Assembly (NCBI GenBank): GCA_024401025.1
Contig: JAKSLV010000002.1
Location: 43-64,042, forward strand
Direction: 5' to 3'
From: Bacteroidales bacterium
Lineage (GTDB): Bacteria; Bacteroidota; Bacteroidia; Bacteroidales; UBA3824
Length of the DNA: 64,000 nucleotides
The notes beneath the pieces were generated by a model that made no database searches, had not been told where the DNA came from, and saw only the letters and a list, made by a program, of their open reading frames with translations. Below, one piece after another: positions 1-62,581 of the stretch. The position numbers were made by a program, and so were the translations under genes. Positions within the stretch are counted from its first letter, which is position 1; every line of letters starts with the position of its first letter.

Positions 1-95
1 GCCTGGCCGCCGAGATCTCGGAGCTTTTCGCCCAAAGCCACCTTCAGGAAGAAAACATCCGCAAACAGTTGGCTAGTATTGGTATTAATATTTAA
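1..95 (+). CDS. 3' end of an upstream gene cut by the window edge; by context the type I R-M methyltransferase subunit (HsdM)
   Basis: Frame is open from the window edge (codons from nt 3: LAAEISELFAQSHLQEENIRKQLASIGINI*). Stop TAA 93-95 overlaps the hsdS ATG (TAATG). Identity rests on the usual hsdM-hsdS order only; the fragment is too short to recognise by sequence. Confidence 0.45.
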   Translation, partial: LAAEISELFAQSHLQEENIRKQLASIGINI

Positions 96-1258
96 TGGAG
101 GAGGAAGAACGTATGGAATGGAAAGAAGTAAGGCTAGGAGAGGTCTGTTCTAATTCTTGTAGTGGTGGCACTCCGAAGAGTACTGTTGAAGACTACTATG
201 GAGGTGAAATACCATGGTTGAACACAAAAGAGATTGATTTTAATCGAATATATAAAACAGAAAAATATATTACAGATTTAGGATTGCGAAATTCTTCTGC
301 AAAATGGATCAAGGAAAATTGTGTCATAATTGCAATGTATGGTGCAACTGCAGCAAAAGTCGCAATTAATAAGATACCTTTGACGACTAATCAAGCTTGT
401 TGTAACCTTGAAATCAATTCGAAATTAGCTGATTACAACTATGTGTATTATGCTATTAAAAATGATTTTACTAAATTAGCATCTTTAGCTAATGGAGGTG
501 CACAGCAAAACCTTAATTCTCAACTTATTAAAGATTACGAAATTCATCTTCCACCTCTTGACACCCAGCGAAAAATTTCGTCGGTTCTTTCGTCATTGGA
601 TGATAAAATCGAAACGAACAACAAGCTGAATTCTAAATTGGAGGAAATGGCACAGGCAATTTTCAAGGAATGGTTTGTAGATTTCGGCCCATTTAAAAAC
701 GGCAAAATGGTAGAAAGCGAAATGGGCTTGATACCAGAAGGCTGGAAGGTGGGAAAGTTGGGAGAAATATGTACATTTAAGAGAGGGAAAGTAATTGTTG
801 CAAAAAATGCAATACCTGGCGATATACCTGTTGTTGCTGGTGGAATGGAACCTGCTTATTATCATAACGAAGCCAACACAAAAGCACCAGTTGTAACCAT
901 TAGCAATTCTGGTGCTAATGCAGGTTTTATGCGAATGTATCATTCTGATATATGGGCTTCTGATTGTTCTTTTATTGACAAAGAATGCCACAATATTTAT
1001 TTTGTATATTGTTTTCTTTCAATAAATAGCCGATTATTGCGTCATGCTCAAACAGGTGCTGTTCAGCCACATGTTAAGCCATCTGATGTTAATAATTTCG
1101 ATATGATATTACCACCTCAAAATATTATTGAAGAATTTCAAACAATAATCAAACCTATAATAACACAGATTGGTTTTAACATAAAAGAGTCCCAGCGATT
1201 GTCTACCTTACGAGACAGTCTGTTGCCGAAATTGATGAAAGGAGAGATCGAAATTTGA
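95..1258 (+). CDS. hsdS: Type I restriction-modification specificity subunit HsdS
   Basis: 387-aa ORF with two variable halves, each followed by an HsdS-type conserved helical spacer (LPPLDTQRKISSVLSSLDDKIETNNKLNSKLEEMAQAIFKEWF and LPPQNIIEEF...SQRLSTLRDSLLPKLMKGEI). Lies between the M tail and hsdR. Confidence 0.85.
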   Translation: MEEEERMEWKEVRLGEVCSNSCSGGTPKSTVEDYYGGEIPWLNTKEIDFNRIYKTEKYITDLGLRNSSAKWIKENCVIIAMYGATAAKVAINKIPLTTNQACCNLEINSKLADYNYVYYAIKNDFTKLASLANGGAQQNLNSQLIKDYEIHLPPLDTQRKISSVLSSLDDKIETNNKLNSKLEEMAQAIFKEWFVDFGPFKNGKMVESEMGLIPEGWKVGKLGEICTFKRGKVIVAKNAIPGDIPVVAGGMEPAYYHNEANTKAPVVTISNSGANAGFMRMYHSDIWASDCSFIDKECHNIYFVYCFLSINSRLLRHAQTGAVQPHVKPSDVNNFDMILPPQNIIEEFQTIIKPIITQIGFNIKESQRLSTLRDSLLPKLMKGEIEI

Positions 1259-1268
1259 AAAAAAAGAA

Positions 1269-1301
1269 AGCTCACTAATCAAAATTAGTGGGCTTTTTTT
1301 A
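1269..1301 (+). terminator. Rho-independent terminator after hsdS
   Basis: AGCTCACTAAT-caaa-ATTAGTGGGCT: an 11-bp stem with one G-U pair, followed by TTTTTTT, 10 nt after the hsdS stop. Confidence 0.6.
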
Positions 1302-1318
1302 TTTTCCTGCCAATAATT

Positions 1319-1349
1319 TTTGTGTTGGGCTTTGGAATTATTATATTTG
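1319..1349 (+). promoter_or_regulatory. Bacteroidetes-type promoter (-33 TTTG / -7 TAnnTTTG) for the ATPase-Toprim-hsdR unit
   Basis: TTTG at 1319-1322, a 19-nt spacer, then TATATTTG at 1342-1349. The ATG at 1388 lies about 39 nt downstream. Confidence 0.5.
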
Positions 1350-1387
1350 CGTGGGCAATAATCGACAAAACAGAAATTGGCAAAAAG

Positions 1388-2524
1388 ATGAAGATTACAC
1401 GATTTGTAGGAAAGGGCATCCATGGATACCTTGACTTCGACATAAATTTCAATGAGGATTTAAATTTCCTGATCGGCGTCAATGGCAGTGGCAAGACTAC
1501 TGTCATCAGACTGCTGAGAGGATTGTTGTGTGGTGCAGAAAAGGATTTAAATGATATTGACTATTCTGAGATTCGTGCTTATATCGATGGTGTGGATAGT
1601 GTGGAGTACGTGGAATCAACAAAGAATAACGGACAAGTTATCACTTTGCCGCAAGACATTAATCCCATTATTATAGGAACCGAAAGAATACTACAAACCT
1701 ATACTAAAGCAAGCACATCTTCCATAGAATTAGCACTTAAAGAGGTTCAGGAGAATCTTTATGTAATAATAAGGCATAATTCAGCCAAATTGGAGGAATA
1801 TGGCAATGACTTCAGGAAGGCGGCATTCAATCTTTCGTTCTCAATGACCGATATACAAGAAAGTAACGAAACCAATAATGAAGAAGATTTGCTTATGTTG
1901 AAAAAATATAGCAAACTACTTCAAGAAGACCGCATAAAGATTTTTCTGGGAGAAGACGCATATAGAGGCACAGAGGATGTTTTAAAAACTGCAAATGAAA
2001 TCCAAAATGATTTATCATCATGGCCGCCAAATTGTATTAGTGAAAAATATAAAAATTTGGCGGAAAGATGGGATAATATAAAGAAAAAGATAAACCGTGT
2101 TTACCAAACAATAGATTTAGCTGACAAATACTCAAAACTGATAAGCGAGCTGAAAGCACCAATCACAAGATTCACAAACAGCATAAATCTCTTTTTCAAG
2201 GAGACAGAAAAATGTATCAAGGTTTCTGATGCCGGCGATATTACAGTACACATAGAAGGTTCCGAAAAGACAAACTCAATATTTGAACTTTCGTCGGGCG
2301 AGCAACAGCTCATCATCCTTATTGGACATCTTGCCTTCAAGAAATCAGACGTCTATATAATCGATGAGCCAGAGTTGTCCCTTCATCTTGCATGGCAATA
2401 TAGTTTTGTGGATGCATTGCAGGAGGCCAATCCCGATGCTCAGTACATACTCGCAACCCATGCTTCAGGCATCATCGCCAAGAAGTCGAGAGAAGAAAAG
2501 TGCATTGATCTAACAAGGAGGTAA
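1388..2524 (+). CDS. ABC/AAA-type ATPase with a helical insertion (OLD/AriA/AbiLi-like defence ATPase)
   Basis: Walker A GVNGSGKTT, ABC signature LSSGEQQ, Walker B VYIIDEPELSLH, H-loop LATHA, with a roughly 190-aa charged helical insert between the N and C lobes. Start set at ATG 1388 (MKITRF), downstream of the promoter; the ORF track begins at GTG 1322. Confidence 0.75.
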   Translation: MKITRFVGKGIHGYLDFDINFNEDLNFLIGVNGSGKTTVIRLLRGLLCGAEKDLNDIDYSEIRAYIDGVDSVEYVESTKNNGQVITLPQDINPIIIGTERILQTYTKASTSSIELALKEVQENLYVIIRHNSAKLEEYGNDFRKAAFNLSFSMTDIQESNETNNEEDLLMLKKYSKLLQEDRIKIFLGEDAYRGTEDVLKTANEIQNDLSSWPPNCISEKYKNLAERWDNIKKKINRVYQTIDLADKYSKLISELKAPITRFTNSINLFFKETEKCIKVSDAGDITVHIEGSEKTNSIFELSSGEQQLIILIGHLAFKKSDVYIIDEPELSLHLAWQYSFVDALQEANPDAQYILATHASGIIAKKSREEKCIDLTRR

Positions 2525-2526
2525 AC

Positions 2527-3390
2527 ATGACCAATATTTCTCCAATCAATGTGCCTCTTGATGTAAGGCAAACTGATTCGATATTTCTCAGATACCGAAA
2601 CGACATAGATATCTATACCGAGGACAAGGAGGCCGACAAGGAATTCTACGTAAAGCTATACAGCAGACTCCTGGCAGGCACTTCCATAAAAGTCAATGAT
2701 ATTCATCCGCTTGGATGCAAGGACGATGTGATAAAAGCCTGCAAGGCAGATAATTCCCGACGTCCCAAAATCTATGTGGTGGATGGCGACATAGATTTGC
2801 TTTTCAGGCAATATCCTCATATGGATAACCTATACAGACTGGATGCGTATTGCATCGAAAACTATGTTGTCTGCAAGCAATCGGTGGTGGATGTGGCATA
2901 CGACCTTATCGGTACCAAACCGAAAAAGGAATATGAGGAGCTGGTGGATTTCGACAACAGGACAAAATCACTGCTTCCGCTCATTAACCTTTTCTTCTGG
3001 TATTCCATTCACAAGGAGCACACCAATATCAATTGCAAGATAAGGAATGTGGCGAGCTACTTGAACGGAGAAAGTCTTGACCCAGCGAAAGTGACCGCCG
3101 AGATAGAATCCATAAAGAAAGGCCTGTTAAGCAAAAACATCTGCGACACAGCCAAGATTGAGGAATTGCTGAACAAGCGGAAATCTCAATTCAACTATTC
3201 GGCAGAAACATTGATGAAAGTGGTTTCTGGAAAAGATTTGATAGTTCCATTCTGGGCCATTATCATAAACAAATTGTCGGATAGTCAAGTAAAACTGAAA
3301 AGGGAAACCTGGAAGTTCAAACTGGTAGACTCATGCGATCTATCAAGGCTTTCCGGATTACGACAGGCTATTGTAACCGCTTGTAGATAA
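2527..3390 (+). CDS. DUF4435/Toprim-like protein (AriB- or RloB-like putative nuclease effector)
   Basis: 287 aa, starting 2 nt after the ATPase stop. Acidic Toprim-like motifs: IYTE32DKEADKEFY, PLGCKDDV, IYVVD86GD88ID90LL, YCIENY. Family call is by eye from motif order, not from an HMM. Confidence 0.6.
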   Translation: MTNISPINVPLDVRQTDSIFLRYRNDIDIYTEDKEADKEFYVKLYSRLLAGTSIKVNDIHPLGCKDDVIKACKADNSRRPKIYVVDGDIDLLFRQYPHMDNLYRLDAYCIENYVVCKQSVVDVAYDLIGTKPKKEYEELVDFDNRTKSLLPLINLFFWYSIHKEHTNINCKIRNVASYLNGESLDPAKVTAEIESIKKGLLSKNICDTAKIEELLNKRKSQFNYSAETLMKVVSGKDLIVPFWAIIINKLSDSQVKLKRETWKFKLVDSCDLSRLSGLRQAIVTACR

Positions 3391-3410
3391 AAACATTACA
3401 CAAAATACCA

Positions 3411-6400
3411 ATGCCTATAAAATTCACCGAGAACTCGTTTGAGAATGTGGTAATCGAGATGTTTCAGAATCTTGGTTACGATTATCTCTGCGGCTACGAT
3501 ATAGATCGCGACCGCAGACGGGCTTACTATGCCGAAGCCTTGGAATCGTCGCTGCGCCGCATCAACAAGGGCCTCGGCGATCTGGCCATCAAGCAGCTTA
3601 TGGAGCGTGTAAGGTACATCGACGGCGCCAACCTACTACAGCGCAACGAGATATTCATGGATATGCTCCAGAACGGAGTCTCTGTGGAAGACCTCCATAG
3701 CGGAGAATACCGCACCGTGGTGGCCCGTCTGGTGGATTTCGATGATATAGACAACAACACATTCCATGTAATCAACCAGTGGACGGTGGAGGAACACTCC
3801 AACAAGCGTCCAGACATTGTGATATTCATAAACGGACTTCCGCTCGTGGTGATAGAGCTGAAGTCGCCCACCAGCGAGCAAGTAAAGCTGGAGGACGCCT
3901 ACAATCAGATAAAGAACTATCAGAAAGAGATACCGTCGCTATTCAGCTACAACTGCTTCAATGTGATAAGCAACATGGCAGAAACGCGTGCCGGCACCAT
4001 AACATCCAGTCTGGAGCGATACATGCAGTGGAAAACCGAGGACGGCATAGTGGAATCGCAGTCCAGCGTGGATTACGGCACATTCTTCAGGGGCATTTTC
4101 CCCAAGGCGCGTCTTCTCGACATCATCAGAAACTTCATCTGTTTCAATAAGGACGAGGACAAGACCTACAAGATACTGGCCGGCTATCACCAGTATTTCG
4201 CCGTCCGCAAGTCGCTGGAGCGCACCAAGGCGGCCATAGACAACGACGGCAAGATTGGAGTATTCTGGCACACTCAGGGCTCCGGCAAGAGCCTCTCGAT
4301 GGTTTTCTTTGCCCATCTGCTGGTTCGCCATTTCGCCGAGACCACCATTGTGGTGGTTACCGACCGCAAGGATCTCGACGGCCAGCTCTACGGACAGTTT
4401 GCCCGTTGCAAGGATTTTATACGCATGGCGCCCCAGAATGCGCAGAGCCGTCAGGAACTTATAAGCCTGCTGAAAGACAGGAAATCGGGCGGAATAATAT
4501 TCACCACCATTCAGAAATTCGAGGAATCAGACGAGCCATTGTCGCTCCGCAAAAACATAATAGTAATCACCGACGAGGCCCACCGCTCGCAATACGGCGA
4601 CGAGAGGTTTGATGTAAAGACCCAGACCACACGCAAGGGCATGGCCCTCAAGATGAGGGAGGCACTTCCCAACGCCAGCTTCATAGGATTCACCGGCACG
4701 CCGATATCCTCGCGCGACAAGAGCACGATAGAGGTTTTCGGCGACTACATAGATATCTACGACATGACCCAGGCCGTGGACGATGGCGCCACACGTCCCG
4801 TATATTACGAGAGCCGTGTGGTGAAACTGAATCTCGACAAGGATATAGTGGATCAGCTGGATGCCGAATTCGACCAGCTTTTGGATCTCGGCGATACACC
4901 CGAGCAGGTGGAGCGCGCCAAGCGTGACGTGTCGCGCCTGGAGGATGTGCTTTGCGCTGATGAAACCATAACATCGCTGGTATCAGACATAATAGAACAT
5001 TACGAGAACAACCGTGCCCAGGAGCTGACCGGCAAAGCAATGATAGTGGCCCTTACAAGAAAGGTAGGCATCAGGATTTATCAGAAAATGCTGGAGCTGA
5101 GGCCCGAGTGGAAAGGCAAGGTGGAGGTGGTGATGACATCATCTAACAAGGATCCCGAGGAGTGGCAGCAGATAATTGGCAACGAGAGCAACAGGAAAAT
5201 GCTGGCCAAGCGTTTCAAGGACGATGCCGACCCAATGAAGATAGCCATCGTAAGGGATATGTGGCTTACGGGATTTGATGTGCCCAGCCTGGCCACTATG
5301 TACGTTTTCAAGGCCATGAGCGGACACAACCTGATGCAGGCCATAGCACGTGTAAACAGGGTTTTCCCCGGCAAGGAGGGTGGTCTGATAGTGGACTACA
5401 TAGGCATAGCCCAGGCGCTGAAGGCCGCCATGCGCGACTACACACAGCGCGACCAGCAGCAGTTTGGCGATCCCAACATTGCCAAGACAGCCTACAACAA
5501 GTTTCTGACCGAGCTCGACATCTGCCGCGACCAGATCTACGGTTTCAATTATCAGAAATTCATCAGCGGAACCGACAGCGACAAGGCCAAGGTACTCACC
5601 ATGGGCACCGACTATATGCTGGACAACAATATGGAGCAGAAGCGCAAGGATTTCATGGAACATTCTCAGCTGCTGCACAATTCAGTTACGCTATGCCGTT
5701 CGCTACTGAGCAGGGAGCAGAAGCTGGAGGCTACATTCTTTGATGCCGTGAGGGTGATGATACTGCACATCAGCCAGTCGCAAAACCGCATCAGAAAAAA
5801 GGAGATCAACGACCGCATCAGTCAATTGCTTCAGCAGAGCGTGAAATCCGATGGCGTGATAAATCTTTTCAGCGACATCAAGCACGAGTTCTCTCTCTTC
5901 GACGAGAAATTCATGGACGAGCTCCACAAGATGAAAACCAAGAACATTGCCCTCGAGCTCCTGAAAAAACTCCTCAAGGACAAGATACAGCAGTTCCGCA
6001 GGGTGAATGTAGTGCAGAGCGAGAAATTCTCCACACTGCTTCAGCAATGCATCAACGGCTATGTGAACGGCCTGATTACCAGCAAGGAGGCTTTGGAAGA
6101 GCTCTTCAATCTTGTAAACGACATCAAGACCCAGCGCGACAAGGGCAACGACCTCGGCCTCAACGACGAGGAAAAAGCCTTCTACGATGCCTTGTCGAAA
6201 CCCGAGATAGCACGCCAGGCCTATACCGACGAACAGTTCATCGCCCTTACCCGCGAGCTTACCGAATGTCTGCGACGAAACCGCACCATCGACTGGAACC
6301 ACAAGGAAAGCGCCCGTGCTCAGATGAGGGTGATGATAAAACGCCTCCTAAAAAAATACAAATATCCGCCCGAGGGATGCGACGAGGCTCTAAATACAGT

Positions 6401-6515
6401 AATGGCACAGTGCGACAACTGGGCCGACAATCTAGACAACTTCCAGACCAGCGATTTCGAAACCGAAAACACAGAATACAAAATGGCCGCCGAAGACGAG
6501 ACGGATTTCAAATAA
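3411..6515 (+). CDS. hsdR: Type I restriction endonuclease subunit HsdR
   Basis: 1034 aa. N-terminal nuclease region (RPDIVIFINGLPLVVIELK), helicase motif I TQGSGKS, DEAH box ITDEAHRSQ, motif GFTGTP, and a C-terminal helical domain typical of HsdR. Confidence 0.92.
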   Translation: MPIKFTENSFENVVIEMFQNLGYDYLCGYDIDRDRRRAYYAEALESSLRRINKGLGDLAIKQLMERVRYIDGANLLQRNEIFMDMLQNGVSVEDLHSGEYRTVVARLVDFDDIDNNTFHVINQWTVEEHSNKRPDIVIFINGLPLVVIELKSPTSEQVKLEDAYNQIKNYQKEIPSLFSYNCFNVISNMAETRAGTITSSLERYMQWKTEDGIVESQSSVDYGTFFRGIFPKARLLDIIRNFICFNKDEDKTYKILAGYHQYFAVRKSLERTKAAIDNDGKIGVFWHTQGSGKSLSMVFFAHLLVRHFAETTIVVVTDRKDLDGQLYGQFARCKDFIRMAPQNAQSRQELISLLKDRKSGGIIFTTIQKFEESDEPLSLRKNIIVITDEAHRSQYGDERFDVKTQTTRKGMALKMREALPNASFIGFTGTPISSRDKSTIEVFGDYIDIYDMTQAVDDGATRPVYYESRVVKLNLDKDIVDQLDAEFDQLLDLGDTPEQVERAKRDVSRLEDVLCADETITSLVSDIIEHYENNRAQELTGKAMIVALTRKVGIRIYQKMLELRPEWKGKVEVVMTSSNKDPEEWQQIIGNESNRKMLAKRFKDDADPMKIAIVRDMWLTGFDVPSLATMYVFKAMSGHNLMQAIARVNRVFPGKEGGLIVDYIGIAQALKAAMRDYTQRDQQQFGDPNIAKTAYNKFLTELDICRDQIYGFNYQKFISGTDSDKAKVLTMGTDYMLDNNMEQKRKDFMEHSQLLHNSVTLCRSLLSREQKLEATFFDAVRVMILHISQSQNRIRKKEINDRISQLLQQSVKSDGVINLFSDIKHEFSLFDEKFMDELHKMKTKNIALELLKKLLKDKIQQFRRVNVVQSEKFSTLLQQCINGYVNGLITSKEALEELFNLVNDIKTQRDKGNDLGLNDEEKAFYDALSKPEIARQAYTDEQFIALTRELTECLRRNRTIDWNHKESARAQMRVMIKRLLKKYKYPPEGCDEALNTVMAQCDNWADNLDNFQTSDFETENTEYKMAAEDETDFK

Positions 6516-6551
6516 AAAATGCGCTCTGCAACATTGCAGGGCGCATTTTTT
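6515..6551. terminator. Bidirectional terminator hairpin between convergent hsdR and serS
   Basis: AAAAAATGCGCTCTGCA-acat-TGCAGGGCGCATTTTTT: a 13-bp stem with one G-U pair, an A-run on one side and a T-run on the other. Confidence 0.6.
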
Positions 6552-6577
6552 AATATAATGATTTGGAACAATATCCA

Positions 6578-7891
6578 CTACTCCTCCTCGGAAGCGGCTG
6601 GCTGGAGATCATCACCGCCGATGTAGTCGAAACCGGTGTACTTGCGGAGCACCTCTGGAATCTCGATACGGTCGGCCTTCTGATAGTTCTCGAGGATGGA
6701 AGCCACGATACGTGGAAGAGCAAGACCCGATCCGTTGAGAGTGTGGCAGAGAGTTGTGTTCTTCTTGCCATCCTCCTTGAAACGGAGCTTGAGTCTGTTG
6801 GCCTGGAACGACTCGAAGTTAGATACCGAGCTTACCTCGAGCCACTTGCCCTGGGCAGCGCACCATACCTCGAAATCGTAGGTCATAGCTGATGTAAAGC
6901 TCATATCGCCACCGCAGAGACGGATGATTCTGTATGGCAGGCCGAGCTTCTTTACGAGGCCCTCCACATGGAGAACCATAATCTCGAGAGCCTTGTAGCT
7001 CTTCTCGGGATGAACAATCTGCACAAGCTCCACCTTGTCGAACTCGTGGAGACGGTTGAGGCCCTTAACGTCAGAACCGTAAGAACCGGCCTCGCGGCGG
7101 AAACATGGAGTGTATGCGCAGTGCTTGATAGGCAGCTGCTTGGCATCGAGAATCTCGTCGCGGTAGATATTGGTTACAGGCACCTCGGCAGTAGGCACGA
7201 GGTAGAGATTATCGAGAGTGCAGTGGTACATCTGGCCCTCCTTGTCGGGAAGCTGGCCAGTGCCGAATCCTGAAGCCTCGTTTACGAGTACAGGAGGCTC
7301 CACCTCCATGTAGCCAGACTTGGCAGCCTCGTCGAGGAAGAAGTTGATGAGGGCTCTCTGAAGCTTGGCACCCTTGCCCTTGTAGAGAGGGAAACCAGCA
7401 CCGGTAATCTTAACGCCGGTAGCAAAATCGATGATATCGTATTTCTTGGCGAGGTCCCAGTGAGGCATAGGCTGAATACCCTCGAAAGAAGGATTCTCGC
7501 CGCCGCGGCGGATCTCCACATTGTCGTCGGCCGACTTGCCAGGAGCCACAAGCTCGTATGGAAGGTTTGGAAGGAGCACGAGAATGTCGTAGAGTTCCTT
7601 GTCGATAGCCTGGAACTTGTCCTCGATTTCCTTAACAATGCCCTTAAGTTCAGTTGACCTCTGCTTGGCAGCCTCAGCCTCCTGAGGCTTACCCTGCTTG
7701 AAACATTCGCCAATCTTCTTGGCCAGGGCGTTCTGCTCGGCCTTGTTGTCCTCGAGCTGCTTCTGGATCTCGCGCTTCTGCTTGTCGAGCTCCACGATTT
7801 TCTCTACTGAGGCTCTGGCGTCGCGGTTCTTGATTGCGAGACGCTCTATGACGAACTCAGGATTGTCAACAATAGTTTTTACTAACAGCAT
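6578..7891 (-). CDS. serS: Seryl-tRNA synthetase
   Basis: N-terminal coiled-coil arm plus class II core (FRREAGSYG..., TLNGSGLALPR). Start chosen at MLLVKTIVDNPEF (ATG 7891) rather than the upstream in-frame Met. Confidence 0.92.
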   Translation of the reverse strand: MLLVKTIVDNPEFVIERLAIKNRDARASVEKIVELDKQKREIQKQLEDNKAEQNALAKKIGECFKQGKPQEAEAAKQRSTELKGIVKEIEDKFQAIDKELYDILVLLPNLPYELVAPGKSADDNVEIRRGGENPSFEGIQPMPHWDLAKKYDIIDFATGVKITGAGFPLYKGKGAKLQRALINFFLDEAAKSGYMEVEPPVLVNEASGFGTGQLPDKEGQMYHCTLDNLYLVPTAEVPVTNIYRDEILDAKQLPIKHCAYTPCFRREAGSYGSDVKGLNRLHEFDKVELVQIVHPEKSYKALEIMVLHVEGLVKKLGLPYRIIRLCGGDMSFTSAMTYDFEVWCAAQGKWLEVSSVSNFESFQANRLKLRFKEDGKKNTTLCHTLNGSGLALPRIVASILENYQKADRIEIPEVLRKYTGFDYIGGDDLQPAASEEE

Positions 7892-10629: not shown

Positions 10630-13188
10630 CTATGCGTCTACCACGTCGTCGTCCTCGTCCTTGCTGTTGCCGTAGCCGTAACCATAGCCATAGCCGTAAC
10701 CATAGCCGTAGCCATAGCCATATCCGTGGTATCCACGCTTGCCGTAGCCGCGTTTCTGACCATCGGCGCTGCCGTTGAGGATGATACCCATCTTGGGCAG
10801 CTTGCCCTCGGTGTAGTAACGGTCCACAACAGGAATCATGCTGCGCTCGATGTTGCCGATTCTTACAACAAAGAGTGATGATGTGGCGTATTCGGCAATG
10901 ATGGTGGTATCAGCCACAACATCGATAGGAGGACAGTCGAATATCACCATGTCGAACTCGGCCTTCAGCTCATTAACCAATTTGCCGAATCTGTCGGAAT
11001 ACAGAAGCTCGGTTGGATTTGGAGGTATCATACCGCAAGGCAGTACGTAGAGGTTTGGCATTATCGCCTTCTTCTCCTCGCTGAGCACGTTGTTTTTGTG
11101 ACGCTCGCGGTAGGTGTACTCATGCTGCTTGATGAGTGGGTGCCAGTCGTCGTCGTCGCCGCTCAGGTATGTTGTGATACCGTTTTCTGGATTTCCAACC
11201 ACGCGGCTGAGGGTTCCCTTGCGGAGGTCGAGGTCAAGGATAACAACTTTCTTGCCCTTGATTGCGAAAGATGTTGAGAGGTTTTCTGATATGAACGACT
11301 TACCGCTACCGGCCATGATCGATGTTATCAGCACCACCTTGTCTTCCTTGTCCTTATGGATAAACTCGTAGTTGCTTCGCAAAATACGGAAGGCCTCGTT
11401 TACCACGTCGCGCTTTTTGGGTTTCACCACGATGGGTCGAATAGTGGTGTCGTCCACCTTTTCCTTGATCTCGAAAAGGCCAAGGAACTTCTTTGTGTTT
11501 TTGCTGCGCCAGAATGGAATCTCGCCCACGAAAGGAGTCTTCATACCCTCGAGGTCCTTGCGTCCGCGGAGCTTGGTGTCGTTGGCCTCTATCAGGTATA
11601 TGATACCGAGAGGAATTATGATTGCAAGCAGGAATGCTATGCCGAGCACCTTGATTGAGCTAGGCGCTGTAGGCTTCATTGTACCGAAAGGAGGACAGAT
11701 GAGACGTGTGTTGTAGGCTGTGAAAGCCTGAGAGAGCTCGTTCTCCTCACGTTTCTGGAGGAGGTAGAGGTAGAGCGACTCCTTAATCTTCTGCTGACGC
11801 TCCACAGTAAGCAGATACTTGGCCTGGTCAGGATTCTTTGCAATGTGTGATATGCTCTGATTGAGAGTACTCTTCAGGGTGTTTATCTGAGCATTGATGT
11901 ACTTTATCTGATTGTCCATCGATGCCATGATGTTGCTCTTCATCTCGTCGAGGGCCTGGTTGGCGTCCTTCACCAGAGGATTCTTCTCCGAAGTTTGGGT
12001 CAGGAGGCTGTTGCGCTCCAGCACCTTCTCGTTGTACTTGGCAATCTGCTGCTGCTCGGCAGTCTGCTGCTGTCCGCCTACGCTGTATGATGGAAGGAGC
12101 TGATACTTCTTGGATGTATCGCTTACGCAGAGCTTGATCTGCTTGGCCATGTAGAGCTGAATCTCGAACTGATTGAGCTCGTTGCTGAGCTCGTTGGCCT
12201 GAGTCATATACATATTTGTGGCCGATTTGATATCAGGAATCAGGTTGTCGGTCTTGTAGGACGAAATGTCGTCGTCTACCCTGCCGAGGTCCTGCTCTAT
12301 CACCTGAAGACGCTCAGATATAAACTTTGAGGTGCTTATCGCGAGCTGGTTCTTGTCCTCTATCCAGCGCTCGTTGTATACGGCTATAAGCATGTTGATG
12401 AAGTCCTCGCTTCGCTGGATGTTCTGGTCTACGTAGCTGAGGTTGATAACCGAAGCCTGCTTGTCGGCCAGCTCGGCGCTCATCTTCTTCTGGCAGATAG
12501 CCACGGCGTCCAGCACAGAGTACTTTGTAACGAAAATACGTGTAGGCTCGTCGAGCTGGCTCCAGTGAGATGTCTTGGAAACGAATATATTGCCGAGCGG
12601 AGTATCCACCGGGCAATCCACTGTTCCTGATACCTCCACACCGTCGGCCTCGAAATTATCAATGCTGGCAGTGGCAAACTTCGACAGCTTGAAAGATCCG
12701 TCGGGATTGATGTCGATAATAAAGGAACAAGAGAACAAATCGTCGGAATCCACAAGCTCCACGCTGATAGGATTGGTCATGCCGTAGAGCACGGTCTTGC
12801 GGAAAGTGCCGTCTTTCTGATAATCGTAATCGATGCTGAGGCGCTTTACCACCTCCATCAAAAGATTGGGCGACTTGATGGCCAGAAGCTCGTCGTTTAC
12901 GCTTGATTTGGAATTGAAGAGGCCGAGATTGGCAAACTCGTCCATGCCGTCGATCGACGCGCCCTTCTTGTCCTGCTTGATCTGGATCTGCGCATCACGT
13001 GTATAGCTCTTCTGTGTGCACAGGATATACAAAACCGCAATGGCAAGGCAAATGAAACCTGATATAATAAACCAATACCATCTGCTTAGGCATGCGCCCA
13101 GCAAATCCATGATATTAAGCTCGTTTACTGCCTCACCTTCGGCCATCTGCATTTGCTGGGCCGAACCATTCTGCTGCTCGTTTATCAT
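10630..13188 (-). CDS. Polysaccharide co-polymerase / BY-kinase (Wzc/GumC-like tyrosine autokinase)
   Basis: 852 aa. N-terminal Wzz-like domain with 2 TM segments and a long coiled periplasmic region, C-terminal P-loop kinase ([31 protein letters not shown]), and a Tyr-rich tail. Confidence 0.85.
10669..10725 (-). repeat. Hexanucleotide (GGY-TAY) tandem repeat encoding G(YG)9 at the BY-kinase C-terminus
   Basis: Codon-by-codon reading gives [19 protein letters not shown], preceded by GYGKRGYH. That is 11 Tyr in the last 40 residues, followed by the acidic end [12 protein letters not shown]. Confidence 0.9.
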
Positions 13189-53569: not shown

Positions 53570-56500
53570 ATGACAGATAATGGCAACAACATAGAGCAAA
53601 AGCCGGTGAGGAAGGCATCCCGCTGGAAAACGCTGACAAAACTGCTGCTGACGGCGGCTCTCATTGTCGGCGCGCTTCAGTATGTGGGCTATTACTGTGC
53701 CTATCCGCTGCTGAAAGACCGCATCTGCAATGGAGTGCACAACAAGAGCCAGGGCCTCTACACCATGGATTTCAGCGACTTCCGCATCGACCTCCTGGGC
53801 CAGAAGATTATCCTGGACAATTTTTCCCTGCGGGCTGATACTGCCGTATATCTGCAGCGCATAGAGCGTGAGCACTACAACAAGGCCATATACAACATCT
53901 CGGTGGAATCGCTGAAGATAAACCACATAGGCATAAAGTCGTTTTTCTCGAACAACGAGCTGTATATAAAGGAGATAATGATGCAGAGCCCCGAAATACG
54001 CCTTGTGGGCAAGCCCGACAAATCGAAGAACGAGAAGGTGAAGTACGACGCCGTGCACACCGACCTCTACCCTCTGCTGAAGCCATACTTCGACGCGCTC
54101 AACATCAGGAAGATAGTGATAAACGACGGCTATTTCGACTTCCGCCTGCGCATCAGCGACAATCAGGAGCAGTTTGGAATCAGCAAGATAGACATCACGC
54201 TGAGGAACTTTTTCCTGAACGAGGACAAGTTTGTGAAGAAAAACCAGTTTTTCTATTCCGACGTTATAGAGATAGGATCGCGCAACTATGTGATAAACCT
54301 GGCCGACAGCATCCACAGCATCACAGCCGAGCATCTGCAGATATCCACCGCCGACTCGTCGATACACGCCAGCAACGTGATGATGAAGAGCAACATGAGG
54401 ACCTACACGCAGAAAAACCGTTTCGACGTGTCACTAAAGGAGATTCAGATAAACGGCCTCGACATCAGCCGCGCCTACTTCGACAAGGACGTAAACCTGA
54501 GCAAGGTTGTGATAAAGGAGCCCACCATAAAATTCGCCAAGGGCGGCAGGGTAAACCGCGAGACCAAGAAATTTGAGGGCACCGGCGAGAACTGGTATCC
54601 TATTATAAAAGGTACTCTGCGCCGCATAGCCATCGACAGCCTGGAGGTGGAGGGCGCGTCGCTGAGCATATCGAAGCCTCAGGTGAGCGCGCAGCCGCTA
54701 TACAACGTGGGCAACGTAAACATAGTGCTTGAGGGTTTCGAGCTGGATTCGCTGGCCTACCGCAACAAGAACAAGATTCTGTATTCCAACGATCTGGACG
54801 TGGTATTGAACGACTACCGCATGATGCTGCCCGACAACACCCATCAGCTAACGGCCGACAACCTGATGCTGAGCACCAAGACCGAAATACTGCACGCCGA
54901 CAAGATAAAGATAAGCCCCACAAGATACGTTAACGATTCCACGGGGAAAACCATGCGCATATCCATACCTCTGCTGGAGCTATCCGGAATCGACATGCGC
55001 AGGGCCTACAATCAGAAGGACTTCAACATAGGAACCATAAAGATATCCATGCCCGACATCAAGACCCGGAGCTTCATAGACAGCCTTCAGGCCAACGGCG
55101 CGCCCAAGCAGCGCACCAGACTGCTGTCGGCATTGTCGGATGAGTTTTTCCACTCGCTGAAAATCCGCAACCTTCAGATATACAAGGGTATGGTAGACAT
55201 CACATCTAAAGCCTACATCAAGGAGGACAGCCTTACTCTATCGGGCAAGCTCTCGCTGAACATAGGCAACTTTGTGGTGAACAGCGCCACCCTGGCCGAC
55301 GACATTCTGCCGTTCAGGACCAGCAGCGTAAAGATAAGCCTCGACGATGCCGTGGTGAAACCCTCCAAGAGTCCGCACACCCTGCGCTGCAAGAATTTCA
55401 TGCTCGACACTCATAACGATATGGTGAAGATATCGCAGTTCAGCTACACCGCCGAGAGCGATACCAGCCTCGTAAGCACGCTGCGCCGCCTGGGCAAGCA
55501 CACCATAATGGACATCCGCATCGACAAGAGCGAGTTTACCAAAACCGAGCTGCTGGAGGCGCTCTATCACGGCAAAATAAACATAGAATCGCTTAAGATA
55601 AGCAATCCGCAGTTCCAGATGAGCGTTTACCCTCAGCTGAGGGCCCACCGCGATTCCATACGACAGATGCGCCTGCCTGATTCTGCCACAATGCACTATA
55701 TGGATTCCATAATGCTGAAATTCAGCGACATGGAACAGCTGCTGGCACGCCGCATCCCCAAGGAGCTGTCGCTGATAAAGGTAGACACGCTAACGGCCGA
55801 CAGCAGCGTGTTCAAGTTTGTGGTGCGCGATACTTTGGACAACATAGTTACCGGCACGTCGTCGGACTTCATGTTCAGGGCCAACGGATTCTACTTCAGC
55901 CACGACAGCATATCGCCCAACGCCAACATAATGCTGGCCAACGGCTACATGATGGATATCAACAACTTCCACTTCATGCTGCCGGGCAAGACCCACATAG
56001 CGCAGTGCGGCAACATCAGGATAGACACCTACGACAGCCTGATAAAGGCCACCGACATATCCATATCGCCGTTCGACAGGGAGCGCACCCAGGGCCGCGC
56101 CCAGATTACGGCGCAGTGTCCGGAGCTTACGATAACGGGAGCAGATTTTGCCACGCTCAACAGCAGCGGCATACTGCCCATAAGCAGCCTCACGTTCAAC
56201 AACAGCGTGGCCACGTTCACGAAAAAGGATACTGCCCTGATGCCGCCCCAAAACAGGGACACCACACGCCGCAAGAAAATTTTCAGAGGATTGAGCATCG
56301 ACTCGCTCACAGCCCTCAACAACAACTTCGGCATCAGCAACCACAACGGCCACAGGGTGATGAACGTGGATTTCGACCTCACAAGCCGCAACGTGAGCAT
56401 CGACAGCGCCAACCTCGCAAGCAAGGGCCACCTGGTATCGTTCGACAGCACGTATCTGGATGCCCAAAACTTCAGAATCAGGATAAAGGAAAACGAGATA

Positions 56501-58024
56501 GCCGCCCAGAGAATCCACCACGAGAACGACACTCTGGTGATTTCTGATGCCGTGTTCCATAATCCCGACGACAGCATCAGGACCAACATAAAAGTGCCAT
56601 ACATACAGGCTATAAGCCCAAATCTGGAGGAACTTGCTTTCAGCAGGACGCTGGACGCCAAGAGCATAAACATACACGGAACAAGGGTGAACCTGCTATC
56701 GAAGGCCAAGAAGGAAAAGCGTGAGAATCAGCAGGAAAGGGAGCGCAAGCCGTTCCACGTAAAGGTGGACACGCTGGCGGCCGACGGCGTATGCATACAT
56801 CTGGACCGCCGATACAAGGACAAGCCCGACCTGCATTTCCCAAATATGGACCTGATAGCCACGGGCATCAACACCGAGACCGAGCACGAATCGGTGTTCC
56901 CGGCCGACAAGATTTCGGCCGGCATCAACAATTTCACCTACCTGCTCAGGGACAGCGTGATGAGGTTCCATTTCGGACGCGTGGAGCTGGATCCGATACA
57001 TCAGATTTTTGTGGCCAACCAAGTGGACTACCGCCCCAACGTGGGACGATACGATTATTACAAGCTATACGACACACGCCGCAGCGCCAACTACGTCAAC
57101 TGTCAGAAGATGACCGGCTACGGGTTCAACATCATAGATTTTGTAAAGACAATGAAGATGGACCTTACGAGGGTGGACGTCGACAAGTTTGCGTTCCTGA
57201 GCTACGACAACAAGACTATGCCGCTGGATTCCACACGCAAGCCCACGCTAAACGAATACATCTTCGACAAGCTGCCGATAAGGGTGAAATCTGATACCAC
57301 CGTGATACGCGACGCCTTCTTCGAGATGGAGCAGCTGAGCCCCGAGGTGGGAACTCCGGGAGTATTGACTCTCAACAACATAAACGGCGTGGTGTTTAAT
57401 TTCACCAACGACACCGCCGACCTGAAGGTCAACGACAAGATGATCCTGACGGCAAGCGGCCTGCTGATGAACCAATCTAACGTGAGGGCCAAGATTATGT
57501 ATGATCTGGATTCGCCAACCGAGGAGTTTGTGTGCAACTTTATGGCCGATTCGATCTATCTGCCAACTCTAAACCCCTACCTTGAGAACGGCATCTTTGC
57601 CAAGGTGGACGACGGCGTGCTCACCAAGGGAACGGTATACTTCAAGAGCGATGATATAAAATCGCGCGGCGAGTCGCAGTTTATCTATCACGACCTGAAA
57701 CTGTCGCTGAACAAGAAGGACAGCATTCAGGAAAAACGCCGCGGATTCCTGTCGTTCCTTGCCAACACTGTGGTGCGCTCCAAGAACACCCGCAAGACGG
57801 GTCACATATACGCCGTGCCCGACTCCACACGCAGTTTTGCCGGCTACTGGATGCAGTCGCTGCTGTCGGGCCTCAAGTCTACCGTGGGCTCCATCTTCGA
57901 GAGCAAGGAGCAGAAAGACGACCGCAAGCTGGCCCGCAAACTCATCGACGCCGTTACAAGGAAAAACCGCGCCTCCGACTACATTCTGGATATCCCAGAT
58001 TATGAGGAGGTAATGGTGGAATGA
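53570..58024 (+). CDS. Very large N-terminally anchored envelope protein (AsmA/TamB-like; tentative)
   Basis: 1484 aa with a single N-terminal TM (LLLTAALIVGALQYVGYY), followed by a long non-repetitive beta-rich sequence, in a cell-envelope gene neighbourhood. Family assignment is tentative. Confidence 0.5.
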   Translation: MTDNGNNIEQKPVRKASRWKTLTKLLLTAALIVGALQYVGYYCAYPLLKDRICNGVHNKSQGLYTMDFSDFRIDLLGQKIILDNFSLRADTAVYLQRIEREHYNKAIYNISVESLKINHIGIKSFFSNNELYIKEIMMQSPEIRLVGKPDKSKNEKVKYDAVHTDLYPLLKPYFDALNIRKIVINDGYFDFRLRISDNQEQFGISKIDITLRNFFLNEDKFVKKNQFFYSDVIEIGSRNYVINLADSIHSITAEHLQISTADSSIHASNVMMKSNMRTYTQKNRFDVSLKEIQINGLDISRAYFDKDVNLSKVVIKEPTIKFAKGGRVNRETKKFEGTGENWYPIIKGTLRRIAIDSLEVEGASLSISKPQVSAQPLYNVGNVNIVLEGFELDSLAYRNKNKILYSNDLDVVLNDYRMMLPDNTHQLTADNLMLSTKTEILHADKIKISPTRYVNDSTGKTMRISIPLLELSGIDMRRAYNQKDFNIGTIKISMPDIKTRSFIDSLQANGAPKQRTRLLSALSDEFFHSLKIRNLQIYKGMVDITSKAYIKEDSLTLSGKLSLNIGNFVVNSATLADDILPFRTSSVKISLDDAVVKPSKSPHTLRCKNFMLDTHNDMVKISQFSYTAESDTSLVSTLRRLGKHTIMDIRIDKSEFTKTELLEALYHGKINIESLKISNPQFQMSVYPQLRAHRDSIRQMRLPDSATMHYMDSIMLKFSDMEQLLARRIPKELSLIKVDTLTADSSVFKFVVRDTLDNIVTGTSSDFMFRANGFYFSHDSISPNANIMLANGYMMDINNFHFMLPGKTHIAQCGNIRIDTYDSLIKATDISISPFDRERTQGRAQITAQCPELTITGADFATLNSSGILPISSLTFNNSVATFTKKDTALMPPQNRDTTRRKKIFRGLSIDSLTALNNNFGISNHNGHRVMNVDFDLTSRNVSIDSANLASKGHLVSFDSTYLDAQNFRIRIKENEIAAQRIHHENDTLVISDAVFHNPDDSIRTNIKVPYIQAISPNLEELAFSRTLDAKSINIHGTRVNLLSKAKKEKRENQQERERKPFHVKVDTLAADGVCIHLDRRYKDKPDLHFPNMDLIATGINTETEHESVFPADKISAGINNFTYLLRDSVMRFHFGRVELDPIHQIFVANQVDYRPNVGRYDYYKLYDTRRSANYVNCQKMTGYGFNIIDFVKTMKMDLTRVDVDKFAFLSYDNKTMPLDSTRKPTLNEYIFDKLPIRVKSDTTVIRDAFFEMEQLSPEVGTPGVLTLNNINGVVFNFTNDTADLKVNDKMILTASGLLMNQSNVRAKIMYDLDSPTEEFVCNFMADSIYLPTLNPYLENGIFAKVDDGVLTKGTVYFKSDDIKSRGESQFIYHDLKLSLNKKDSIQEKRRGFLSFLANTVVRSKNTRKTGHIYAVPDSTRSFAGYWMQSLLSGLKSTVGSIFESKEQKDDRKLARKLIDAVTRKNRASDYILDIPDYEEVMVE

Positions 58025-61005: not shown

Positions 61006-61037
61006 CAAAGATAAATAGTATTTTTTAATTATGCAAA
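61006..61037 (-). promoter_or_regulatory. Bacteroidetes-type promoter of small gene copy 1
   Basis: Minus strand: TTTG (61037-61034), a 20-nt spacer, then TATCTTTG (61013-61006). AT-rich upstream tract. Confidence 0.55.
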
Positions 61038-61275
61038 TTTTTTAATGATTATTTTTAAAATAATTACAAAATATTTTCTGACACCAACAATCAATTATTC
61101 AACCACCCGGAATTTTGCATTTCAGATACTTGGAGTCAATTTTTCAGGGCGTATCAGGCTGAGGCTGATGCTTCAGACAAGAAATAAATAATTATCAGTT
61201 ACAGAATTCAAACGAACAATTATTTATCAGAAACGGAAGCATCAGGACAAAGCCACTCTCCTACCGGCATAGGCA

Positions 61276-61310
61276 CAAAAAAAAGAGGCCCGGAACTTAA
61301 TCCGGACCCC
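61276..61310 (-). terminator. Rho-independent terminator of small gene copy 2
   Basis: Minus strand: GGTCCGGA-ttaagt-TCCGGGCC (one G-U pair) followed by TCTTTTTTTT. Confidence 0.65.
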
Positions 61311-61351
61311 TTGGAGGTTTAGCAGCCGTCAGCGGCGGAATCCTCATTGAT

Positions 61352-61537
61352 CTACTCGTTGTCGAGATCATAAGTATTCTCAACCACCATCGAACTAGAT
61401 CCCTCGTAGTGCTCCTCGGTGATTACATTCACGAATGCACTGTTGACCAAAGTTTTTGCCCACTCAAAGAGGCTGAAGTGACGCTCCTCGATACCAGTGT
61501 TCTGGGCAAATGGCAAGTTAATTCTAATAGTTCTCAT
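61352..61537 (-). CDS. Small hypothetical protein (copy 2 of tandem paralogues, 61 aa)
   Basis: MRTIRINLPFAQNTGIEERHFSLFEWAKTLVNSAFVNVITEEHYEGSSSMVVENTYDLDNE. It has its own promoter and terminator and is shorter at the C-terminus than copy 1. Confidence 0.65.
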   Translation of the reverse strand: MRTIRINLPFAQNTGIEERHFSLFEWAKTLVNSAFVNVITEEHYEGSSSMVVENTYDLDNE

Positions 61538-61608
61538 TTTCTCAAAAAATTTAAAGTGTTAATAAATAAAAAAGTTGTTGTTGCTGTAATCTTTGTTTGA
61601 TTACGATG

Positions 61609-61640
61609 CAAAGATAGAAACGTATTTTTATTCTTGCAAA
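61609..61640 (-). promoter_or_regulatory. Bacteroidetes-type promoter of small gene copy 2
   Basis: Minus strand: TTTG (61640-61637), a 20-nt spacer, then TATCTTTG (61616-61609). Same geometry as copy 1. Confidence 0.55.
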
Positions 61641-61973
61641 TTTTTCTGTAATTATTTTTGAAATATTTTTATATAATGGTATTTTTATAATGTTTTTACT
61701 GATATTTCAACACATAAATCTGTATTACAGATACTTATAATAAGGATTATGTGTATTTGTTAAATTTTGTTAAATAATTTAAGAAATCAAAGTCAAAAGA
61801 AGAAATTTATTAAGGAATTTGTATTTAATTGGTGGGCTGTGGTTTTGATTTGTCGGTTTTATTTATATATTTTTGCTTGTATAGTTTGCTTTATTCATTA
61901 ATACATAATCGGGTCTTTAATACAAAGAAGAGCTGCTATAAAGAAATATAACTTGAATTATAAATATAGATAC

Positions 61974-62014
61974 AAAAATCCCCCGACTATAGCCAGATGG
62001 CAACAATCGGGGGA
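61974..62014 (-). terminator. Terminator after the 137-aa membrane protein gene
   Basis: Minus strand: TCCCCCGA-20 nt loop-TCGGGGGA followed by TTTTTG. Confidence 0.5.
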
Positions 62015-62063
62015 AGTATCAGGAAAGAGGGAAGTATCAGGAAAACAAAAATATACTATTCTG

Positions 62064-62477
62064 CTATGTTTTGGCAAATGGACCAAAGCCAAACAACAGA
62101 ATAAGCAAATCGGACAAAACTACGACAATACCAAAAGGCAAAAGCGCGAGCAGATAAAAAACAAAAGATGATAGAGACTTGGTATCAGATTCCAACAATT
62201 TCTTTGCCGGGAAAGCCGTGCCCAACAACTGCATTAAAATACTTATGAAAATAAAATAAAAGTAAATTCCCTTGATTCCATAATGAGGATTGGCTGTCCA
62301 AAAGTTTTCGTGAATTGTATTCAGGCGGTTGGCCACAAAGAAAAAGGCAAAGGAAGCCAGCCACCAAAGCAAGGCCTTCCCGACAGCAGGTTTTACGGCA
62401 GGACATTTATAAAAACTGACTGCAACACAAGCTATCGTGAAAACAACGCAAAAGGCGCAAAATAAAAACTTTTCCAT
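62064..62477 (-). CDS. Hypothetical 4-TM membrane protein
   Basis: 137 aa with four hydrophobic segments (FLFCAFCVVFTIACVAVSF, LLWWLASFAFFFV, IYFYFIFISILMQLLG, FVFYLLALLPFGIVVVLSDLLILLFGF). No family recognised. Confidence 0.55.
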   Translation of the reverse strand: MEKFLFCAFCVVFTIACVAVSFYKCPAVKPAVGKALLWWLASFAFFFVANRLNTIHENFWTANPHYGIKGIYFYFIFISILMQLLGTAFPAKKLLESDTKSLSSFVFYLLALLPFGIVVVLSDLLILLFGFGPFAKT

Positions 62478-62581
62478 AATTGATTATTTTATTTATATTA
62501 CAAAAGTATTCATATTAAAATTCATAAACAAAAAAATAAGCAAGTTTTCACTTCAAAGTAGTATGAAAATATTTTTTTTCT

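Follow-up and report, generated by a model that had tools for sequence, protein, structure and literature searches.

A probable divergent PARIS-type gene pair between hsdS and hsdR of a Bacteroidales type I restriction–modification locus

What are the two genes that separate the specificity gene from the restriction gene in a type I restriction–modification (R-M) locus of a Bacteroidales bacterium, and might they guard the enzyme that surrounds them? The locus lies at the left end of a 64,000-nucleotide (nt) stretch of contig JAKSLV010000002.1 (metagenome-assembled genome GCA_024401025.1), hereafter the window, whose own numbering is used throughout. Four genes on the same strand stand there in the table of open reading frames (ORFs): hsdS, gene 1, gene 2 and hsdR. 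An initial annotation, made from the letters of the DNA, had read genes 1 and 2 as a PARIS-like pair, that is, an ABC ATPase (AriA) followed by a Toprim nuclease (AriB). PARIS is present in ~5% of genomes (Rousset et al. 2022), and its role as an anti-anti-restriction backup is already established. Here, we conclude that the pair is very probably a divergent PARIS-type anti-phage toxin–antitoxin (TA) module (AriA/AriB, class 4 OLD-like), situated in a variable slot of the type I R-M locus.

The gene pair matches AriA and AriB

Gene 1 (1388–2524, + strand, ATG at 1388) encodes an ariA-like ABC ATPase of 378 amino acids (aa), and gene 2 (2527–3390, + strand, ATG at 2527) an ariB-like DUF4435/Toprim protein of 287 aa. 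Under the Pfam-based rule for PARIS, a gene scoring ≥32 bits for AAA_15 or ≥27 bits for AAA_21 adjoins a gene scoring ≥27 bits for DUF4435 (Rousset et al. 2022). The pair scores 80.5 bits for AAA_21, 71.9 bits for AAA_15 and 73.3 bits for DUF4435, with the two genes 2 nt apart. All three Pfam families are significant, and PADLOC calls both AriA and AriB. Together with the fold matches in the Protein Data Bank (PDB) and the catalytic conservation described below, these results agree with the initial annotation in placing a PARIS-like pair inside a type I R-M locus. The pair thus belongs to the PARIS family, with intact catalytic motifs and a conserved ariA-then-ariB cassette laid out within the operon.

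Gene 1 matches AAA_21 with E = 3.1e-22 and AAA_15 with E = 1e-19, and its top PADLOC model is AriA (1.3e-34). The AriA of Escherichia coli B185 PARIS-2 scores near-equally on the same Pfam models (74.3 and 70.1 bits). In the PDB, the best sequence match of gene 1 is AriA (8ux9/8v45, 4.6e-11), a match that covers only the two ATPase lobes. We recovered the E. coli B185 AriA and AriB sequences (AriA from printed alignments); aligning a profile of 38 members of the ATPase family with E. coli AriA by hhalign gave a probability of 99.6% (E = 7.5e-24) over 396 columns. The single-chain AlphaFold model of gene 1 has a confidence score (pLDDT) of 86.7. When this model was searched against the PDB with Foldseek, ranks 1–15 were all AriA chains (E = 1.5e-15 to 2.4e-11, TM 0.53–0.58), ahead of SMC, Rad50, retron and Septu (PtuA) ATPases.

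The catalytic elements of the ATPase are complete. Walker A, signature, Walker B and H-loop motifs, all noted initially, are present and invariant across 38 AriA-like sequences, as G30-x-N-G-x-G-K36-T37, S302-S-G-E305, D326-E327 and H358. On the + strand, K36 is encoded at nt 1493–1495, the signature SSGE at nt 2291–2302, D326/E327 at nt 2363–2368 and H358 at nt 2459–2461. The helical insert had been put at roughly 190 aa; in the AlphaFold model it is ~160 aa, with helices spanning residues 112–273. Among 5.8 billion proteins, gene 1 has no full-length homologue above 44% identity, and the 378-aa ATPase is a singleton.

Gene 2 matches DUF4435 (E = 3.4e-20) over positions 2–231 of the 238-position profile, and its PADLOC matches are solely AriB (3.5e-18) and the fused AriAB model. 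The single-chain AlphaFold model (pLDDT 92) finds two AriB chains by Foldseek, 8ux9_A (E = 2.6e-5) and 8v46_D (E = 2.9e-4), with probability 1.00 over 306–312 columns; AriB chains are its sole PDB fold matches below 1e-3. At E ≤ 1e-3 the subfamily numbers 1174 cluster representatives among 1.84 billion, of which 454 remain at E ≤ 1e-30.

Across 31 AriB-like sequences, with identities as low as 24%, eight residues never vary: E32, D33, D86, D88, E111, N112, S234 and K236. The Toprim acidic residues among them are encoded on the + strand at nt 2620–2622 (E32), nt 2782–2790 (D86-G-D88) and nt 2857–2859 (E111). The conserved acidic residues of E. coli AriB, a two-metal Toprim nuclease, are E26, D30, D88, E90 and E122; by motif order and spacing, the acidic residues of gene 2 correspond to the catalytic ones among them, E26, D88, E90 and E122. 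Every acidic motif proposed initially is present in gene 2, and conservation extends to E32, D33, D86, D88, E111 and N112 but not to D90. The absence of an HNH or PD-(D/E)xK signature, also part of that proposal, is borne out in Pfam: there is no HNH, RloB (PF13707) or TOPRIM-Old match at E ≤ 1, and no PD-(D/E)xK family match.

Membership of the family is not captured by DUF4435 in every case. At E ≤ 0.01, the Pfam model misses both E. coli B185 AriB and the AriB-like protein of a second embedded locus described below (L011, 9974–10840). A DUF4435 match is thus sufficient but not necessary for membership, and detection rules based on Pfam thresholds overlook real PARIS members. Because E. coli AriB misses the model, the AriB of the window is nearer to the core of the Pfam family than the characterized protein is.

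The ATPase is a shortened derivative of its clade

Most of the ATPases that accompany this AriB subfamily are 440–485 aa long, near the 464 aa of E. coli AriA. The window ATPase has 378 aa, and its two nearest relatives have 308 and 321 aa. Block indels in the alignment indicate that the proteins were shortened in different places. What the window AriA has kept is the helical insert, together with a conserved G-x-E-R100 element that aligns with the radial-pore loop; in the short relatives it is the helical insert that is mostly lost. The initial annotation had taken the shorter ATPase as a possible sign of a distinct subfamily. The protein is indeed shorter; its clade, however, has a norm of 440–485 aa, and by alignment the window copy is a shortened derivative of that norm.

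Several differences from E. coli PARIS weigh against the assignment. The window AriA lacks blocks that align to E. coli AriA residues ~86–150 and ~175–198, the first of which includes the central-pore loop 113–124. The IS1 region is correspondingly unlike: in the window it is 44 aa long and contains 3 basic residues (net charge −3, isoelectric point 4.3), whereas the E. coli region has 129 aa, of which 22 are basic (net charge +4, isoelectric point 9.4). Of the basic IS1 pore loops (E. coli 113–124 and 161–174), the G-x-E-R100 element of the radial loop is all that the window AriA has. The E. coli AriA residues that contact AriB, D401 and E404, are A335 and Y338 here. For gene 2, identity to solved AriB is 12–13% and the global TM-score is 0.42. 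Sequence methods gave no link to E. coli AriB: phmmer found none, hhalign against E. coli AriB returned a probability of 0.6%, and the gene 2 subfamily profile met only chance matches in the PDB (intein, lethal factor). What connects gene 2 to AriB is its DUF4435 match, its pairing with an AriA and the fold search.

In E. coli AriA, the basic IS1 loops are implicated in binding the acidic triggers Ocr, Ptr1 and Ptr2. Across the 11 PARIS clades these loops are reportedly poorly conserved, and they do not define the family. E. coli AriA combines a Rad50/SMC-like head with a short helical (coiled-coil) insert, which carries an aromatic ladder (F230, F234, F238 and Y304) that joins dimers into the hexamer. 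The first insert helix of the window AriA bears F142, F147 and F151; their register against E. coli Y221/F226/F230/F234/F238 differs between hhalign and MAFFT.

Locus architecture and transcription signals

The flanks of the pair are confirmed by Pfam and NCBIfam, and the two co-oriented genes lie between hsdS and hsdR as first described. hsdS (95–1258, + strand) encodes a type I specificity subunit with two target-recognition domains, matched by Methylase_S in two stretches (1e-40). hsdR (3411–6515, + strand) encodes the type I restriction subunit (TIGR00348 hsdR, 4e-183), with HSDR_N, SWI2_SNF2 and T1RH-like_C domains. Both genes are intact with full domain sets. Upstream, an hsdM-like 3′ end (3–95, + strand) has a frame-3 translation ending in IRKQLASIGINI*, with the stop at base 95 overlapping the hsdS ATG by 1 nt; these last 31 codons are all that the window holds, the remainder of hsdM lying outside it. 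By analogy with the hsdM–hsdS coupling of related loci, and by its position, this ORF tail is assigned as hsdM.

As the initial annotation had it, gene 2 starts 2 nt after gene 1 stops (stop at 2524, ATG at 2527), and 20 nt separate ariB from hsdR. A Shine–Dalgarno-like hexamer, AGGAGG (2516–2521, + strand), read from the sequence, lies inside the 3′ end of ariA and precedes the ariB ATG by 5 nt. This placement suggests that translation of ariB may be coupled to that of ariA. A longer gene 1 starting at GTG-1322 is mechanically possible. We rejected this start because M1 aligns with the start of 37/37 homologues and a promoter motif overlaps the GTG.

That motif, TTTG-N19-TATATTTG (1319–1349, + strand), is of the Bacteroidetes type and lies 39 nt upstream of the ariA ATG. 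Its presumed function builds on the Bacteroides promoter consensus. Against an expectation of 1.08, the window holds 12 copies of the consensus TTTG-N17–22-TAnnTTTG, a count reached in 0/100 shuffles. Directly after hsdS, an intrinsic-terminator-like hairpin with 17 pairs and a T-run (1263–1300, + strand) is the top-ranked terminator-like site in 1–7000. No other + strand promoter motif occurs before the end of hsdR, and no terminator-like site occurs in the ariB–hsdR gap (3390–3411). This arrangement suggests two transcription units, hsdM–hsdS and then ariA–ariB–hsdR from the putative promoter at 1319–1349. Since the 20-nt gap before hsdR has neither a terminator nor a promoter motif, hsdR is probably co-transcribed with ariAB. 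The backup module and the restriction subunit would therefore be expressed and inherited together.

Elsewhere in the window, 5/12 of the promoter motifs cluster at 61006–62532, four of them on the minus strand. This stretch has a low GC content (~0.41) and few ORFs, none reaching 140 aa between 60530 and 62615, and neither Rfam nor tRNA scans matched it; small ORFs or small RNAs that escaped annotation may lie there. Across the entire window, those scans gave no matches.

Does hsdS normally abut hsdR in this lineage, as had been supposed? The nearest HsdR relatives, 66–71% identical to the window HsdR, stand in four distinct contexts. In two of these hsdS does abut hsdR, in the orders hsdM-x-Fic-x-hsdS-hsdR and hsdM-Fic-AbiJ_NTD4-hsdS-hsdR; in the other two an ORF intervenes, in the orders hsdS-(56 aa)-hsdR and hsdM_N-DUF1016/YhcG-x-hsdS-(322 aa)-hsdR. 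Given these differing contexts, the hsdR lineage has variable cargo slots, with PARIS in the hsdS–hsdR slot of the window. In these relatives (L061–L065), cargo proteins of 341, 185, 151 and 322 aa have no Pfam match and are candidates for embedded defence genes.

Base composition changes sharply within the operon. GC content at third codon positions is 0.28 in hsdS, 0.39 in ariA, 0.52 in ariB and 0.70 in hsdR, with ~0.55 in the hsdM tail and an overall GC content of 0.495 in the window. The step falls between 95–3390 and 3411–6515. By composition, hsdS and ariAB look imported relative to hsdR, which supports acquisition.

The cassette is seldom linked to type I genes

We surveyed the clade with one genome per GTDB species, obtaining 58 loci, 57 of them with an AriB-like gene. 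Most of the loci come from Bacteroidota; Pseudomonadota, Planctomycetota, Spirochaetota and other groups contribute a few. The AriA-like gene is immediately upstream of the AriB-like gene in 56/57 loci, and the exception is at a contig edge. Among 2.9 million viral contigs (IMG/VR), phage carriage was limited to 3 weak relatives.

R-M genes lie within three genes of the cassette in 9/57 loci, and in 6/13 of the closest loci. The survey had been proposed as a check on how often such pairs sit inside hsd loci, and the expectation that the clade does so as a rule is refuted: type I genes are this near in 3/57 loci (L011, L014 and L024). Eco57I/MmeI-type (type IIG/IIL) enzymes are within the same distance in five others (L006, L008, L012, L022 and L040), and L002 has an AlwI and methylase pair. 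Further genes near the cassette encode, among others, a DUF4011 helicase-nuclease, NACHT, Schlafen/AlbA_2, PLD nucleases and integrases. In L005, the ORF just upstream of ariA (94 aa) was considered as HsdS on a seed match of 7e-9; it was dropped, as both Pfam and BLAST against the window HsdS were negative.

One surveyed locus shares the arrangement of the window. In L011 the order is hsdM-hsdS-ariA-ariB-(450 aa)-hsdR, with a full-length ATPase of 453 aa. Its HsdR is only 28% identical to that of the window, which argues that the hsdS–hsdR slot was used independently in two type I families. The 450-aa gene between ariB and hsdR (L011, 10960–12312, + strand) has no Pfam match and is unrelated to the Schlafen/AlbA_2 gene of the same length that follows ariB in L008. 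A three-part neighbourhood recurs in L006 and L008: a type IIG Eco57I/MmeI-type enzyme stands directly upstream of ariA, and a gene with Schlafen/AlbA_2 and HATPase_c_4 domains directly follows ariB (L006, 10973–12427; L008, 10902–12254).

Proposed mechanism and alternative explanations

The mechanism of E. coli PARIS has been described (Burman et al. 2024; Belukhina et al. 2025). AriA and AriB form an AriA6:AriB3 complex, in which K39 is the Walker A lysine and E393 the Walker B glutamate of AriA; AriA binds Ocr directly, and the system behaves as a type II TA system. By homology, the AriA of the window would oligomerize and keep the Toprim nuclease AriB inactive, until binding of a phage protein to AriA led to ATP-dependent release of AriB. 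Freed AriB would dimerize and act as a two-metal ribonuclease that cuts specific tRNAs. Translation would then stop and the infection would be aborted.

What would trigger the module is a separate matter. By analogy with E. coli, an anti-restriction protein stands first among the candidates, although we hold this only tentatively, and a role of the pair as a guard or backup of the surrounding R-M system is plausible on the same grounds. Two findings count against such a trigger. This AriA is without the basic IS1 loops through which the E. coli protein binds acidic triggers, and the PARIS embedded in a Salmonella BREX island gave no response to Ocr, so that embedding does not guarantee anti-restriction sensing. 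With the basic IS1 loops lost and the pair probably transcribed with hsdR, AriA may not sense a phage protein itself. A switched mode of sensing, in which AriA would monitor the surrounding type I enzyme in the manner of PrrC or respond to a non-acidic class of triggers, nevertheless seems very unlikely.

The PrrC-like version of this idea can be stated more precisely: AriA would be held by HsdM2S1 or HsdR, and AriB would be freed when an anti-restriction protein disables the type I enzyme. In EcoprrI, prrC lies between hsdS and hsdR, the same slot as ariAB; PrrC and the predicted AriAB are both ABC ATPase-linked tRNA nucleases, and the absence of the direct-sensing loops and the probable co-transcription with hsdR would fit. 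The clade, however, is mostly found away from type I genes, and the window's closest relatives, L002 and L003, are outside hsd loci. The embedded copy in L011 combines a full-length ATPase with an unrelated HsdR, and E. coli AriA needs no such intermediary to bind Ocr. Although the slot is shared with PrrC–EcoprrI, the proteins are of the AriA/AriB type, and no PrrC model is among the top PADLOC matches. We therefore regard a guard of this kind as decidedly unlikely. A degenerate or repurposed module, which would sense no phage and either stabilize the hsd locus as a TA addiction cassette or be decaying, is also improbable. In its favour are the singleton ATPase without a close full-length homologue, the block deletions relative to the clade norm, a foreign composition that makes recent acquisition possible, and the behaviour of PARIS as a type II TA system. 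Yet both ORFs are intact with every catalytic residue present, both models are confident, and the helical domain and G-x-E-R100 loop are kept. The closest relatives have different, likewise in-frame insert deletions, which suggests tolerated modular variation rather than decay.

Least probable is a different ABC ATPase–Toprim system, such as AbiL/RloA–RloB, Gabija/OLD, MADS3-4, HEC-01 or Septu. Rlo genes are classically located in type I loci, HEC-01 is likewise an embedded ABC and Toprim pair, and gene 1 also matches the generic ATPase models mad3 (1.6e-22), PtuA (1.2e-19) and GajA (9e-14) in PADLOC. AriA, however, leads the PADLOC, PDB-sequence and fold matches of gene 1, and the PADLOC matches of gene 2 are to AriB and AriAB alone. 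The AbiL/RloB architecture, offered initially as the alternative to PARIS, fails on the missing RloB match. Septu (PtuA/PtuB) was rejected on the lack of an HNH match in gene 2 and the lower scores of the PtuA models, and MADS on the lower score of mad3 and the PADLOC matches of gene 2. Unlike OLD and GajA, the ATPase and nuclease are separate polypeptides here; there is no TOPRIM-Old match, and the GajA match is only that given above. HEC-01 is set apart from the pair by description only. A divergent PARIS-type module remains our preferred reading of the locus.

Other features of the window

The defence locus ends at 6515. Downstream of hsdR are only housekeeping genes, including serS, rpmA, rplU, thyA, pnp, a Mur ligase gene and yebC. 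Among housekeeping genes lies a 1484-aa ORF (53570–58024, + strand) that matches no Pfam family at E ≤ 1e-5. On the minus strand, 10630–13188 encodes a Wzz/tyrosine-kinase-like polysaccharide co-polymerase of 852 aa that ends, at its C-terminus, in consecutive Gly-Tyr repeats.

Discussion

The closest characterized system is E. coli B185 PARIS-2 (PDB 8UX9 and 8V45–8V49), which shares the order ariA then ariB and the combination of an ABC ATPase with a Toprim nuclease of ~290–310 aa. Its AriA has 464 aa, compared with the 378-aa, central-pore-loop-less protein of the window. It occupies a P4 satellite hotspot, whereas the window pair is in a chromosomal hsd operon, and its AriB misses DUF4435, for which the window AriB scores 73.3 bits. 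In placement, the window resembles the type I BREX island of Salmonella Typhimurium D23580/LT2 (StySA), where PARIS is nested in, and co-transcribed with, a defence system based on DNA modification and inhibited by Ocr-type proteins. A complementary or backup role was proposed for that PARIS, which responded neither to Ocr nor to the Ocr homologue of a Salmonella phage. The host system there is BREX and enterobacterial; here it is type I R-M in Bacteroidales.

Two other families share features with the locus. PrrC (EcoprrI, prrA–D) has the hsdS/hsdR slot and an ABC-ATPase sensor linked to a tRNA nuclease, and acts as a guard that becomes active when a phage inhibits restriction. It is one polypeptide with another nuclease domain, masked by the R-M enzyme, as opposed to two proteins with a Toprim effector. 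AbiL/RloA–RloB, the R-linked ORFs of Campylobacter, likewise combines an ABC ATPase of the AAA_15/21 supergroup with a Toprim protein in type I loci; its Toprim partner is RloB (PF13707), whereas gene 2 is a strong DUF4435 match.

Embedding as such has been catalogued. The 'guilt-by-embedding' study of Payne et al. 2024 reports defence cassettes, including HEC-01, nested in BREX, DISARM, Hma and type I R-M loci, proposes that embedded PARIS fires when Ocr blocks the host system, and curates one embedded cassette as 'Incorporate into PARIS model'. The study is a catalogue and, as far as its available text shows, describes neither this Bacteroidales clade nor the shortened ATPase. Embedded PARIS and the guard argument are thus already published; the call made for this locus is correct, and the finding is largely ordinary. 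The sole distinctive traits are the shortened sensor insert and the probable co-transcription with hsdR.

The locus provides a well-supported example of PARIS in Bacteroidales, an order for which the literature searched contained no experimentally studied PARIS. At least twice, and in unrelated type I families, PARIS has been taken up into the slot between the specificity and restriction genes of a type I operon, which fits the published idea that abortive-infection backups move together with the restriction systems targeted by phage countermeasures. Natural block deletions in the ATPase inserts, of most of IS1 in the window and of most of the helical insert in its nearest relatives, could help to map which parts of AriA serve assembly and which serve trigger recognition. 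While current understanding is unchanged, the locus offers a basis for comparison and a candidate in which to look for triggers using Bacteroidales phages.

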